From the sequence record PQ287651.1: a stretch of DNA of 64,000 nucleotides; one strand, written 5' to 3'. Source of the stretch: Pseudomonas phage HHBS18_1. The notes below the pieces were generated by a model that was not told the DNA's origin, did not search any database, and was given only the letters and a program-made list of their open reading frames with translations. Every line of letters begins with the position of its first letter. The first letter of the stretch is position 1. Below, piece after piece: positions 55,849-62,574 of this stretch. A program made the position numbers and the translations under genes.

Positions 55849-55876
55849 TTGACAGCTTGGGCCATTCGCGTAGAAT
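55849..55876 (+). promoter_or_regulatory. sigma70-type promoter TTGACA-N16-TAGAAT with 9-bp inverted-repeat operator GGGCCATTC-N5-GAATGGCCC (55858-55880) overlapping -10
   Basis: perfect consensus; palindrome shared with promoters at 56390, 59136, 62498. Confidence 0.6.
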
Positions 55877-55948
55877 GGCCCTCAAGCAAAGGGAAACACC
55901 CTGAGCAGTCACAGACAACGGAGACGCCGATAGGCGAGGAGAAAGCAG

Positions 55949-56077
55949 ATGCAAATGTTTTTCAAAACCCGTACCCAAGCCCGTGCAATGGCCTCCAATG
56001 GCCGTAAAGTGGTAGACAACGGCGCTCAAGCTGAAAAGCGCTGGGCTGTCAAGCTGAACAAAAAGGAGGCGAAATAA
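55949..56077 (+). CDS. small basic protein (42 aa)
   Basis: MQMFFKTRTQARAMASNGRKVVDNGAQAEKRWAVKLNKKEAK; RBS GAGGAGAAAG; TAATG coupling to next gene. Confidence 0.4.
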   Translation: MQMFFKTRTQARAMASNGRKVVDNGAQAEKRWAVKLNKKEAK

Positions 56078-56385
56078 TGGCTAAGTCTGTCAGTGTAGAT
56101 CGCAAGCGTTCCATCCTCGACGAGGCGAAAGACGGTAGCTTTTTCAGTGTGGAATTCGTCAAGGCAGACGGCACCGTTCGAAAGATGACGTGCAAGCGCC
56201 AGATTAAATCGGCGTATGCTAACGGACAGTATGCCACTCGCAAACCGACCAGCGCCGGCAAGCCGCACCTGTATACCGCCGCTGAAGTGCTGAACATGGA
56301 AGAGGGTAAATCCGCTTTCCGTACTATCAATCTCGAAACCCTTGTCCGTGCTAAGGTGAACGGAATCGAATATAAATTCGATTAA
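56077..56385 (+). CDS. hypothetical protein
   Basis: 102 aa, RBS AAGGAGG. Confidence 0.45.
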   Translation: MAKSVSVDRKRSILDEAKDGSFFSVEFVKADGTVRKMTCKRQIKSAYANGQYATRKPTSAGKPHLYTAAEVLNMEEGKSAFRTINLETLVRAKVNGIEYKFD

Positions 56386-56389
56386 AGGG

Positions 56390-56417
56390 TTGACACCTTG
56401 GGCCATTCGCGTAGAAT
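56390..56417 (+). promoter_or_regulatory. sigma70-type promoter TTGACA-N16-TAGAAT with operator palindrome GGGCCATTC-GCGTA-GAATGGCCC (56400-56422)
   Basis: identical core to 55849 promoter. Confidence 0.6.
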
Positions 56418-56454
56418 GGCCCTCAAGCAAGACAAACAACTGAGAGGCGGCAAC

Positions 56455-56667
56455 ATGAAACAAGGTACTGATTTGATCGCTAAAGCAAGTTTCACCGCCC
56501 GGCTCCCGGGAGCTAAGCGGGGGATTTCGGTCAAGCCGGGAGATAAATTCTGGGTCACTACTCCATCCTACAGTAACACTGATTTCGTAGGCGTAGCGAG
56601 GAAAGGCAAAACAACCTCCTATCTTTTCACTGCTAAGGATGTACAAACTCTTTTCGAAACGGTATAA
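56455..56667 (+). CDS. hypothetical protein (70 aa)
   Basis: ATG 56455 with RBS GAGAGGCGG; the longer ORF from 56398 would start inside the promoter. Confidence 0.45.
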   Translation: MKQGTDLIAKASFTARLPGAKRGISVKPGDKFWVTTPSYSNTDFVGVARKGKTTSYLFTAKDVQTLFETV

Positions 56668-56715
56668 TCTTCAGACCCAATTGACCAACGTTTGACAACA
56701 TAGGAGATTTAAAAA

Positions 56716-56862
56716 ATGGCACGTTCTATCAAGGCTTCCGACTTCGATTCCGCTTACCAGTTCGAGGCCGCCAAACGTTCCGAACGTAAAGAGTCCCGCA
56801 AATCGCGTGACAATCGCAAAGCTAGCCGAGGCCGAGCTTTCGACTTCAGTAGCGATATGTAA
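56716..56862 (+). CDS. small highly basic protein (48 aa)
   Basis: MARSIKASDFDSAYQFEAAKRSERKESRKSRDNRKASRGRAFDFSSDM; RBS TAGGAGA. Confidence 0.4.
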   Translation: MARSIKASDFDSAYQFEAAKRSERKESRKSRDNRKASRGRAFDFSSDM

Positions 56863-57106
56863 GGTTTGTGCCCTGCCGGCAGGCTTAAATGCCGGCAATC
56901 CTAAGCCCATTCGTCGAGTGGTTTTAGGATTCTCAACCCCAGCGGAGATACCAAAAATGGTTCGTCAATGCGTACCCTGTCCCGATGCTCGCCATGCTTT
57001 TTGCCTTGCATGGTTGTTCGCCATGCCGGAGTTCGCCGGTCTGCCCGCTCAAAAGGACATAAAACTCTTTAAGACTTCGGGACAGTGGGCGGTATGTTAT
57101 GGCTAG
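56807..57106 (+). CDS. possible Cys-rich zinc-ribbon protein (CKVC ... CVPC); coding status uncertain
   Basis: 99 aa ORF overlapping the 56716 ORF in another frame; region 56863-57098 otherwise non-coding and hairpin-rich. Confidence 0.2.
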   Translation: MTIAKLAEAELSTSVAICKVCALPAGLNAGNPKPIRRVVLGFSTPAEIPKMVRQCVPCPDARHAFCLAWLFAMPEFAGLPAQKDIKLFKTSGQWAVCYG

Positions 57107-57482
57107 GCGTCAACGGCTACCGTCGTGGGTGCAGGACCAGACCGAGGACGATACTCCACTCCGGGATAAGATAGACCCATACCTTAGCAAGCTCGGCGAA
57201 GTCGATAAGCTAGAGGGACAATTGCGACGGGTCAGGGATGCAACGGACCCGGACGAATACAACGAAATGGCTAAGGTACTAAAAGCCCGACGCCGGAAGA
57301 TAATGAAGCAACGTGCCCGGGCCTACGGTCTGCCAGAGGATGAGCCTACCAATGTCCAAGGGTACAGCGTACCGGAAGAGGTTCACCGTAGAGCCATCCT
57401 GTTAAGCAGTGTAAAACCTTGGATGTTCTGGACCATCCTGTCTTTCTCGATTTTTGTGTGGTTTGTTTTGAAAAACAGTTGA
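57099..57482 (+). CDS. hypothetical protein with C-terminal TM helix
   Basis: 127 aa; C-terminal WMFWTILSFSIFVWFVL. Confidence 0.45.
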   Translation: MARRQRLPSWVQDQTEDDTPLRDKIDPYLSKLGEVDKLEGQLRRVRDATDPDEYNEMAKVLKARRRKIMKQRARAYGLPEDEPTNVQGYSVPEEVHRRAILLSSVKPWMFWTILSFSIFVWFVLKNS

Positions 57483-60678: not shown

Positions 60679-60736
60679 AGGCCTCAAGAAAGGAAAACAG
60701 CCGAAAGGCTCAATCTGAAACCCGGAGATCAATAAA

Positions 60737-61321
60737 ATGCTGCTAGTTCATGGGACCACTGCAAAAGGCCTGAAAGCTATCATGAACCGTCAAGGCAAGG
60801 AAGGATTAGCCGCACCTTGGGACGTTTCGGATCATGATGGAATGTCATACTTTTACAACGTGAACAAGGCTATGGAATGGCACGATGAAGAGGAGTACGC
60901 TAAAGCGGAATGCATTACCCGTTGCCTAGAACAGGCTCAATTACAGCAAGCTATGATGGCCGAAGGCGGTAAAATCTATGCTCTGGTGGTCAATATCCCC
61001 AAAGAGTTTCAAGACTGCGTAGAAGATGATTATTCGTGCCCTAACGCCAGTAATGAGGCTAGCTGTTTTCCAGAGGATAACTTGGATCCGTCATGGATTG
61101 TAGAAGTGTATGAGGCAGATGTGAGTGTATGGGCCATCCCTTTCATCATAGCAGGCGTTGCAGGTAATGAGATGTTCCAATCCTACCGACTACCTGACAA
61201 ACTGGTGGCGATAGCGAAGTCGGTGGCGCAGTCCAGTGACATAGACACATACGAAGCTTTCGAGATCGACCATTCACAGGTGGAGCTATCTATTCTCGAA
61301 AATTTCAAAGATAACGCTTGA
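60737..61321 (+). CDS. hypothetical acidic protein
   Basis: 194 aa, Asp/Glu-rich. Confidence 0.5.
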   Translation: MLLVHGTTAKGLKAIMNRQGKEGLAAPWDVSDHDGMSYFYNVNKAMEWHDEEEYAKAECITRCLEQAQLQQAMMAEGGKIYALVVNIPKEFQDCVEDDYSCPNASNEASCFPEDNLDPSWIVEVYEADVSVWAIPFIIAGVAGNEMFQSYRLPDKLVAIAKSVAQSSDIDTYEAFEIDHSQVELSILENFKDNA

Positions 61322-61345
61322 CAGTCTAGCCAACTAGCGTAGAAT
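61318..61345 (+). promoter_or_regulatory. sigma70-type promoter TTGACA-N16-TAGAAT
   Basis: consensus; 5' UTR hairpin GGGGUGC-AUAA-GCGCCCC. Confidence 0.55.
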
Positions 61346-61393
61346 GCCTAGCCAAGGGGTGCATAAGCGCCCCACCTCGAAAGGATACAGAAA

Positions 61394-61639
61394 ATGGCCA
61401 TCGTTGATCGAACCGCAGGTAATGAAAGCCCGAATCACTGCTACATCGTTACTGGCAGCATTGGACCAGAGTTTGAGCCGACCCTGTTCACTACCCATGC
61501 GCTGGCAAAGAAGTATGCCCAGCAGATAGTGAAATACGGCAAGGCGAACGATGTTTTCCCGCCTTTCGTGCCTGTTATCGAGACTCGCCACAAGGCAGAT
61601 ATGAATCGCTTCACGATTCACAACAAAATTCCAGAATAG
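61394..61639 (+). CDS. hypothetical protein
   Basis: 81 aa. Confidence 0.45.
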   Translation: MAIVDRTAGNESPNHCYIVTGSIGPEFEPTLFTTHALAKKYAQQIVKYGKANDVFPPFVPVIETRHKADMNRFTIHNKIPE

Positions 61640-61650
61640 GAGATAAATCG

Positions 61651-61980
61651 TTGAAACTCTCTCAAATTTTCCAAGAAGGCCTCGACTACGCAATTTCAGC
61701 CGGGACGCCGTGGTATATGTGCATACGTCTGCGGGAGATTCACTTGTTCCCCTCGCCCGTTGAAATGGCAGTTAACTCGGTCATGATGTCTGCCGGTATC
61801 TCATCAACCCCAGAGGGATGCGAATTCGCCGGCGTTGATGACTATTTCGAGGAAAGCGGCCTAGCAGCCGCATACAAAATGAACAATCAGGAAATGTCCG
61901 AATACGGGCGCTCATCCTACGCAATGTGGGTGCAATTTTGGTTCTTCGTAATCTTTGACTTAGCCCGAAAAGGGCAGTAG
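61651..61980 (+). CDS. hypothetical protein (TTG start)
   Basis: 109 aa, RBS TAGGAGA. Confidence 0.4.
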   Translation: MKLSQIFQEGLDYAISAGTPWYMCIRLREIHLFPSPVEMAVNSVMMSAGISSTPEGCEFAGVDDYFEESGLAAAYKMNNQEMSEYGRSSYAMWVQFWFFVIFDLARKGQ

Positions 61981-62015
61981 AATAGCCGGCAGATAATGTG
62001 ATCTAAGGGACGATC

Positions 62016-62495
62016 ATGAAAGACAAGACTGTAGTTTATCGAATCGAGTGCAATAACGGCGAGGGCCCTTATGTTAATGGGTGCATGACGAATTTGTCTT
62101 CCACTCCAGAACGGCCTGTCCCTGAGCATGACGGGATACCGGATGTTCGCTATTTTGAGTTCTTCGCCTTCACGTCCCCTAGGCAGCTAGACGATTGGTT
62201 TGGCGACGAATACGATGTACTGTCCTTCTATTCCACCGCACGGATCAGGGTCTATGAGGTGGACAAGCAACATGTAAGGGTCGGCATCCGGCAATGTGTA
62301 TTCCGCAAGGCGGAAGCTGATTGCGTCCAAGAGGTGAGCATAGACCAATGGGTTAGCATGGTACGCGCCGGACTATTGTCCGCCTCGGTCACACAAACTG
62401 TAGCTCCACGTCCTACCGAGCAATTGTCCCTAGACCTAGGGGATGACTCGGCCTGCGAAGCTTCGAAAGAAATTTTGAAAATGTTCGGTCTGTAG
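62016..62495 (+). CDS. hypothetical protein
   Basis: 159 aa. Confidence 0.45.
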   Translation: MKDKTVVYRIECNNGEGPYVNGCMTNLSSTPERPVPEHDGIPDVRYFEFFAFTSPRQLDDWFGDEYDVLSFYSTARIRVYEVDKQHVRVGIRQCVFRKAEADCVQEVSIDQWVSMVRAGLLSASVTQTVAPRPTEQLSLDLGDDSACEASKEILKMFGL

Positions 62496-62497
62496 GG

Positions 62498-62525
62498 TTG
62501 ACAGCTTGGGCCATTCGCGTAGAAT
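62498..62525 (+). promoter_or_regulatory. sigma70-type promoter TTGACA-N16-TAGAAT with operator palindrome GGGCCATTC-N5-GAATGGCCA (62508-62530)
   Basis: one mismatch in right half-site. Confidence 0.55.
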
Positions 62526-62574
62526 GGCCATCAAGCAAGGGGATGAGCCCTAAGCAGTAGAAGAGGTGAGAACG

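Follow-up and report, generated by a model that had tools for sequence, protein, structure and literature searches.

We analysed a 64,000-nt stretch of the genome of Pseudomonas phage HHBS18_1 (PQ287651.1), called the window here, which is 88–98% identical to approximately 280 records of Pseudomonas aeruginosa phages in the genus Pakpunavirus (family Vandenendeviridae). Its variable early region is rich in ORFans and contains a repeated 41-nt promoter element, with four copies in 6.7 kb, each of which carries an inverted repeat (dyad) over the −10 box. The original prediction interpreted the dyad as the operator of a dimeric helix-turn-helix (HTH) repressor. The results fit best with the four sites being copies of a mobile promoter/stem-loop cassette, the Pakpunavirus/Nankokuvirus counterpart of the promoter-early stem-loop (PeSL) elements of T4-type phages; the cassette would be an analogue of these elements and not a member by descent. 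A short blast search with the cassette found it in 158 phage records, every one from Pseudomonas, at 4–7 places per genome in Pakpunaviruses and 2–3 in Nankokuviruses.

The four promoters that had been proposed were confirmed on the plus strand at 55849–55876, 56390–56417, 59136–59163, and 62498–62525. Every dyad lies inside TTGACA-N16-TAGAAT (11/12 consensus positions), with the −10 hexamer lying partly in the loop and partly in the right arm. The dyad consensus is GG(G)CCATTC-N5-GAATGGCC(C), with the core GGCCATTC-N5-GAATGGCC common to all four. Copy 1 of the cassette (55849–55889; −35 box 55849–55854, −10 box 55871–55876, +1 at 55884) contains the dyad GGGCCATTC-GCGTA-GAATGGCCC at 55859–55881, and copy 2 (56390–56430; −35 box 56390–56395, −10 box 56412–56417, +1 at 56425) contains its dyad at 56400–56422. 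Both of these have perfect 9+5+9 arms. The other two are mismatched at the outermost pair, leaving an 8+5+8 core. They are the dyad AGGCCATTC-CAGTA-GAATGGCCC at 59146–59168 (core 59147–59167) in copy 3 (59136–59176; −35 box 59136–59141, −10 box 59158–59163, +1 at 59171), and the dyad GGGCCATTC-GCGTA-GAATGGCCA at 62508–62530 (core 62509–62529) in copy 4 (62498–62538; −35 box 62498–62503, −10 box 62520–62525, +1 at 62533). The coordinates first proposed for the dyads were correct at three sites and one base too low at the first. The conserved spacer GCGTA is present in three copies but is CAGTA in the remaining one, and the sequence that follows the dyad is CTCAAGCAA in three copies but ATCAAGCAA in the other.

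When the pattern GGGCCATTC-N5-GAATGGCCC was searched over the window with up to three mismatches, exactly these four sites were returned, as opposed to 0.03 expected from shuffles. Beyond the four sites, GGCCATTC does not occur in the 64 kb, and there are no isolated sites or half-sites. The stem of 8–9 bp with its 5-nt loop spans −25 to −3 and has an RNA folding energy of −12.8 to −16.4 kcal/mol (z = −4.4 to −5.1). For the 23-mer of dyad 1, the values are −16.4 kcal/mol as RNA (z = −5.1) and −9.8 kcal/mol as DNA (z = −5). At all four cassettes, the stop codon of the upstream gene is located 2–10 nt 5′ of the −35 box.

The transcription start was placed by homology with the Nankokuvirus PAK_P3, which has two perfect cassette copies and one degenerate copy. 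ONT-cappable-seq of PAK_P3 (Putzeys et al. 2024) mapped the transcription start sites (TSSs) P045, P051, and P041 to 58020, 60536, and 55259, respectively, and each of these is the A of CTCA/ATCA, 8 nt past TAGAAT. The +1 positions given above for the window copies follow from this spacing (copy 1 by homology with P045/P051), as does the −25 to −3 placement of the dyad. The TSSs mapped at the identical PAK_P3 cassette thus bear out the earlier view that the palindrome lies upstream of +1 and outside its own transcript. In the same study, SAPPHIRE.CNN classed the dyad promoters as sigma70. The PAK_P3 RNA-seq read density increases approximately 4-fold from gp99 to gp100, the gene behind the palindrome promoter, which places the dyad promoter among the strongest early promoters. 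The evidence supports the four sites as genuine strong early sigma-70 promoters.

Two other promoter types were considered and rejected. The promoters of N4-type virion RNA polymerase have a 5–7 bp stem with a 3-nt loop and are recognized without sigma-70 hexamers. An N4-type hairpin promoter does not agree with the near-consensus −35/−10 boxes at 16-nt spacing and a TSS 8 nt past the −10 box. An antisense promoter inside the dyad was rejected because the hexamers do not fit on the reverse complement. We also observed a high G+C content in the discriminator that separates the −10 box from +1 (GGCCCTC; 55877–55883 and the equivalents in the other copies). According to its genome paper, the Pakpunavirus Adele has genes for a MazG-like enzyme and a small alarmone hydrolase; a link between (p)ppGpp control and the G+C-rich discriminators of the cassette promoters is pure speculation. 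Early transcripts with and without the dyad begin with a shared (C)AAGCAAG/AAGAAAG motif (55884–55910, 62533–62560, 57514–57540, and 61353–61380), which is complementary to gCTTGAc of the −35 region. Many early transcripts also have a small 5′ hairpin at approximately +7 to +25, for example, AGGGAAACACCCT, GGGGATGAGCCC, AGGCGGACAGGCCGCCT, and GGGGTGCATAAGCGCCCC.

Conservation was assessed over 20 loci (the window and 19 loci of relatives), which gave 87 cassette copies and 56 different 68-mers. The −35 hexamer, GGCC at −24 to −21, TT at −19/−18, and GTAGAATGGCC at −14 to −4 are invariant, as is the right arm. The highly polymorphic positions are −27 (T49/C34/A4), −25 (A56/G30/C1), −16 (C51/G34/T2), −15 (T51/C25/A11), and −3 (C60/A25/G2), and all of them fall outside the 8-bp arms. 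Variants in the left arm are confined to −20 and −17. There is one copy with C>G at −17, and the two copies with A>C at −20 represent the Nankokuvirus promoter that is degenerate and differs in its leader as well. Seven copies, at several genomic positions, have A>G at −20; this produces a G·U pair at a cost of 0.4 kcal/mol as RNA and is seen only alongside the ninth G–C pair. The confinement of A>G to such copies hints at selection on stability, though linkage could explain it. Judged from this distribution of variants, the 8-bp arms are shown to be under purifying selection. Constraint on the left arm, which sits in an otherwise free spacer, is supported. The repeat is therefore not a duplicated segment that lacks dyad-specific conservation, since the highly polymorphic positions fall outside the arms.

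Conservation is not limited to the dyad. Positions −29, −28, −26, −14, and −2 to +6 are also at least 95% conserved, and the conserved unit is therefore the whole cassette; A and T predominate from −45 to −38. Since the −10 box (GAAT) and the GGCC discriminator dictate the right arm, a left arm that pairs with it must be GGCCATTC. A purely structural requirement for pairing with the −10 box and the discriminator is sufficient to demand a constant arm sequence.

The cassette copies are associated with gain and loss of genes. Alignment of the window with eleven relatives gave pieces whose ends were grouped into 16 breakpoint clusters, seven of which are within 40 nt of a promoter TSS, compared with an expectation of 7.8% (binomial p = 1e-4). 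At cassette 4, the blast pieces overlap at 62496–62539 while the relatives jump 2.0–3.2 kb. This copy is a hybrid: its upstream flank and left side are of one type, and GGCCA plus the GGGGATGAGCCC leader are of the other. In relatives, the two types merged here are 2–3.2 kb apart. The same arrangement is seen in PS24, which has a hybrid of two PAK_P3 copies and does not have the 2.5 kb between them. As read from the alignments, the hybrid cassettes in the window and in PS24 are records of kilobase deletions between copies. An insertion of 265 bp unique to the window (56438–56701, plus strand) starts at +13 of cassette 2, where the aligned relatives jump from 56437 to 56702. It carries a 70-aa ORFan (56455–56667) with no PHROG or Pfam match and is absent from all aligned relatives that cover the site. 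Across phages, at least 10 different downstream sequence contexts are found behind the cassette. Between the two genera, the cassette and its downstream gene are conserved behind upstream sequences that are no longer alignable. The comparisons show that homologous recombination between copies has deleted or inserted gene blocks in both genera. The dyad itself is not needed. In PAK_P4, the promoters corresponding to 60651 and 61318, neither of which has the dyad, are fused at their shared −10 box with approximately 700 bp deleted; recombination therefore needs the repeat (sequence identity) and not the dyad.

Hairpins in promoters are common in this group of phages. We folded the region from −42 to +6 of 41 mapped PAK_P3 TSSs and compared it with 150 control windows. 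A fold z-score below −2 was found for 29% of the promoters and 4.7% of the controls (Mann–Whitney p = 8e-4). Numerous PAK_P3 promoters contain further inverted repeats, each with a sequence unrelated to that of the cassette. P033 (GGGGCC...GGCCC) and P039 (GGGGCCAG...CTGGCCCC) have the hairpin over the −10 box, P049 has it around the whole promoter (CTTGACGGGGGTC...GACCCCCGTCAAG), and P050 has it in the spacer (GGGGCCC-GCAA-GGGCCCC). In P066, the arrangement is again 9+5+9 (GGAGGCCAG-GCATA-CTGGCCTCC); the loop contains half of the −10 box, and the stem is followed directly by the TSS. The recurrence of the same dyad geometry with unrelated sequences points to a structural rather than a sequence-specific role. 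Six promoter-embedded hairpins of PAK_P3 coincide with mapped RNA 3′ ends (T020, T024, T026, T029, T030, and T033), all within 15 nt of the next TSS.

These observations suggest a PeSL-like promoter/stem-loop cassette whose hairpin acts on read-through RNA, a reading to which we assign a probability of roughly one half. In 5′ to 3′ order, the proposed cassette would consist of an AT-rich tract in which the stop codon of the upstream gene lies, then a consensus sigma-70 early promoter whose −10 box and discriminator are overlapped by the stem-loop, and finally a conserved transcript start. The dyad would act through its nucleic-acid structure and not by binding a protein. When transcribed by RNA polymerase coming from the upstream gene, it would form a stable RNA hairpin (approximately −13 to −16 kcal/mol) that ends 3 nt before the new transcript start. 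We infer that the effect of the stem-loop is on this read-through RNA; the hairpin may attenuate it or mark its 3′ end, thereby insulating each gene cassette. The gene packing is so tight that there is no room for a separate terminator, and the hairpin can be placed only in the next promoter.

Several observations weigh against this reading. No transcription termination site (TTS) was called at the two perfect PAK_P3 dyad promoters, and transcription units TU075–TU079 cross them. This is weak evidence, because TTS calling needs a read drop of at least 20% across the site, which cannot be met where a strong promoter lifts the coverage approximately 4-fold; a transcription unit needs only one spanning read. 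Given the 20% rule, we dropped the missing TTS as proof against a role for the hairpin. The promoter-window hairpins show no bias in stability between sense and antisense strands (p = 0.48), and nothing in their stability thus decides between an RNA-level and a DNA-level structure. In the window copies, the hairpin is followed by CTCAAGCAA and not by a U tract. A single arm sequence is present in all copies of two genera, as a protein site would look. Finally, of the eight early promoters on the plus strand of the window, three (57479, 61318, and 61955) have no significant hairpin. An intrinsic (Rho-independent) terminator was rejected as an explanation of the dyad; the U tract is missing, and the four sites are absent from the terminator scan.

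The main rival of the stem-loop cassette is an operator, in which a dimeric sequence-specific protein of the phage or the host binds GGCCATTC-N5-GAATGGCC at −25 to −3 and blocks RNA polymerase at a subset of promoters. A perfect dyad placed exactly over the −10 box and discriminator is what such a site would look like. The arms are identical in all copies from two genera while flanking and central positions vary, dedicated control makes sense at promoters that are among the strongest early ones, and the absence of a called terminator at the PAK_P3 dyad sites is in keeping with it. However, arm identity is already forced by the −10 box if pairing alone is required, and the unrelated sequences of the same geometry at other promoters and the lack of isolated sites or half-sites elsewhere in the 64 kb do not favour an operator. 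The two regulatory classes of promoters that the original prediction derived from the dyad were not seen in the RNA-seq of PAK_P3. In the table of Chevallereau et al. 2016, the genes behind the dyad have log2 values (13 versus 3.5 min) of −2.50 (gp100), −1.96 (gp106), and −2.01 (gp107), which are inside the range of −1.81 to −3.01 of the other early genes shown there; on these two time points, dyad-driven and other early genes are shut off alike. Autoregulation by small early proteins is also not supported. We found no recognizable DNA-binding domain (HTH, ribbon-helix-helix, or other) in 20 early proteins searched against Pfam or in eight early proteins of the window searched against PHROGs, including the four candidates proposed originally. 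For the 102-aa protein at 56077, these scans gave only a sub-threshold WYL_2 match, and Pfam and PHROGs assigned no known function to the proteins downstream of the cassettes. No gene is constantly associated with the cassette; a constant partner gene was rejected, as the proteins behind the last cassette of the window and of PAK_P3 are unrelated. SrpA, which is needed by the Pakpunavirus K5 and is the only host factor known for these phages, was rejected as the binder because it recognizes a different motif, NTATC-N(0-9)-GATAN. A scan for the bare dyad in 185,579 bacterial genomes returned matches spread over taxa that are not related to each other, which is what a pattern of 16 fixed bases would be expected to give; the matches listed included no P. 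aeruginosa, a result that is uninformative on a host operator. A binding site for a dimeric HTH repressor is thus not supported by the like shut-off, the lack of a DNA-binding domain, the unrelated repeats of the same geometry, and the fact that the repeat is part of a mobile cassette. The operator could be a very early on/off switch below the resolution of the 3.5 and 13 min samples, or a site for a host factor exploited by the phages. Overall, we consider an operator unlikely, and it is slightly more doubtful still that a phage or P. aeruginosa protein on GGCCATTC-N5-GAATGGCC controls the strongest early promoters of two genera.

A DNA-level structure, either a cruciform or a single-stranded hairpin that makes the promoter sensitive to supercoiling or assists recombination or template switching between cassettes, appears quite improbable. 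The DNA hairpin is stable for its size, its stability has no strand bias, the crossovers in the window hybrid and in PS24 are inside or right beside the dyad, and one PeSL crossover was mapped within the loop. On the other hand, promoters without the dyad recombine too, arms of 8–9 bp are short for cruciform extrusion, and a benefit from recombination is second-order selection, which is unlikely to hold eight positions invariant. We give equally little credence to the dyad having no separate function, with the left arm kept by recent spread of the cassette or as the spacer of the strongest promoter and the complementarity incidental. The conserved positions outside the dyad agree with such an origin, as do the variant alleles at several genomic positions, which indicate exchange between copies. 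The probability of 8/8 complementarity at the given offset is, however, approximately 1.5e-5, and the polymorphic positions fall exactly outside the arms. The cassette is also old, being common to two genera with unalignable flanks, and other promoters of the group carry their own, different dyads.

The remaining early promoters show how closely genes and signals are packed. The palindrome-free promoters at 57479, 60651, and 61318 were confirmed. Those at 57479–57506 (TTGACA-N16-TAGAAT) and 61318–61345, both on the plus strand, have no significant fold (z = −0.24 and −0.06, respectively), and the upstream stop codon TGA is within the −35 TTGACA of each (57479–57484 and 61318–61323). The plus-strand promoter at 60651–60678 (TTGACG-N16-TAGAAT; feature 60627–60678) has its −35 box in the 3′ arm of a canonical terminator hairpin (60627–60661; −26.7 kcal/mol, z = −5.1) with a T run directly behind it. 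In the PAK_P4 GenBank record, the ortholog of this site bears the annotation ‘putative terminator’. An additional plus-strand promoter, absent from the original list, is located at 61955–61983 (TTGACT-N17-TAGAAT); it has a small spacer hairpin, GCCC-GAAAA-GGGC, and the upstream stop TAG is inside its −10 TAGAAT (61978–61983). On the minus strand, a near-consensus TTGACA-N16-TAGAAT promoter lies at 55121–55094, in an approximately 1-kb stretch (54380–55365) without convincing open reading frames (ORFs). Its ortholog in the PAK_P4 record is ‘promoter_03’, annotated from RNA-seq as driving the antisense RNA as16.

Two further features of the window were noted. A group I intron (36322–36590, plus strand; Rfam RF00028, 71.9 bits) splits the DNA polymerase I gene into ORFs 34380–36389 and 36674–37363. 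The intron insertion of approximately 275 bp (36374–36647) is absent from phage Moonstruck, where the polymerase gene is continuous. Past the last early gene, in the non-coding stretch 63150–63900, the 18-nt sequence CGAAAGCGGAGCTTTCAA is repeated exactly and in direct orientation at 63202 and 63767. The stretch also contains partly complementary arms and a motif, present three times, that ends in GCATGACA. The terminal repeat of phage Ab08 begins approximately 450 bp past the orthologous last gene. Possible roles of the stretch are those of an end, a packaging region, or an origin.

Few P. aeruginosa phages are used for therapy as much as Pakpunaviruses and Nankokuviruses, and the function of almost all early genes of these two genera is unknown. 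Recombination between cassettes explains the divergence of the 11-kb region between near-identical phages, in which whole gene blocks are lost or gained. The cassette copies are places where deletions can be predicted during engineering or propagation of such phages. The cassette is, moreover, a compact, very strong, and experimentally mapped Pseudomonas promoter. If the PeSL-like reading is true, the PeSL principle would no longer be limited to T4-type phages but would also hold in a myovirus family unrelated to them; an operator, if true, would reveal an unknown early regulator.

The repeated promoter itself was already known. Henry et al. 2015 (PLoS One, PMC4309531) described a 41-nt intergenic repeat, 32/41 nt of which are strictly conserved, that holds a TTGACA...TAgAAT sigma-70 promoter. 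It is clustered in an 11-kb variable early region, with 5–6 copies in PAK_P1-like and 2 copies in KPP10-like phages, and the authors called the conservation around the hexamers ‘unusual’. This repeat is the same element as the four window cassettes. The text of that paper does not mention dyad symmetry, a stem-loop, or a link to indel breakpoints. The PaP1 genome paper gives one copy as a predicted promoter, and copies in the PAK_P4 and PAK_P3 GenBank records are annotated ‘putative promoter’. In the literature searched, we found no description of the dyad or of the cassette behaviour. No Rfam family matches the cassette region. An IMG/VR scan with the right half and leader added little diversity, returning only seven genomes, all already known as isolates, and a metagenome scan gave two chance matches, neither with the cassette.

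The dyad can be compared with three known systems. The cI–Cro operators of lambda, 434, and P22 and the LexA boxes are, like the dyad, symmetric sites of approximately 20 bp on the promoter core, at which binding of a dimer would keep RNA polymerase out. Unlike these operators, the dyad is without a known cognate protein, no differential regulation is seen in PAK_P3, and half of it is the −10 box itself, which is enough to explain its constant sequence. The 3′-end hairpins of PAK_P3 (Putzeys et al. 2024) are from the same phage group and early region, overlap the −35 box, spacer, or −10 box of the next promoter, have no U tract, and end within approximately 10 nt of the next TSS. They differ in their unrelated stems, which are richer in G+C, and in that a 3′ end was called there and not at the two dyad copies.

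In T4-type phages, the PeSLs form clusters among ORFans, carry an AT-rich tract on their upstream side, and shuffle genes when their copies recombine (Arbiol et al. 2010, PMC2839356; Comeau et al. 2014, PMC4122927). The dyad cassettes differ from these elements in the phages that carry them, which are Vandenendeviridae (Pakpunavirus and Nankokuvirus) and not T4-like, and in that one stem sequence dominates, whereas the PeSLs have G/C-run stems of varied sequence. Terminator activity was demonstrated for one PeSL by reporter assay; for the dyad, attenuation is what we infer. Encapsidated mini-circles, formed when adjacent copies recombine, are a further trait of the PeSLs. The two kinds of element are alike in architecture: in each, a consensus sigma-70 early promoter follows an AT-rich tract that contains the stop codon of the upstream gene, a stem-loop covers the −10 box or lies between the two hexamers, and many copies occupy an ORFan-rich variable region. 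In both, recombination between copies deletes or inserts the intervening genes, with the breakpoints in the elements and hybrid elements left behind.

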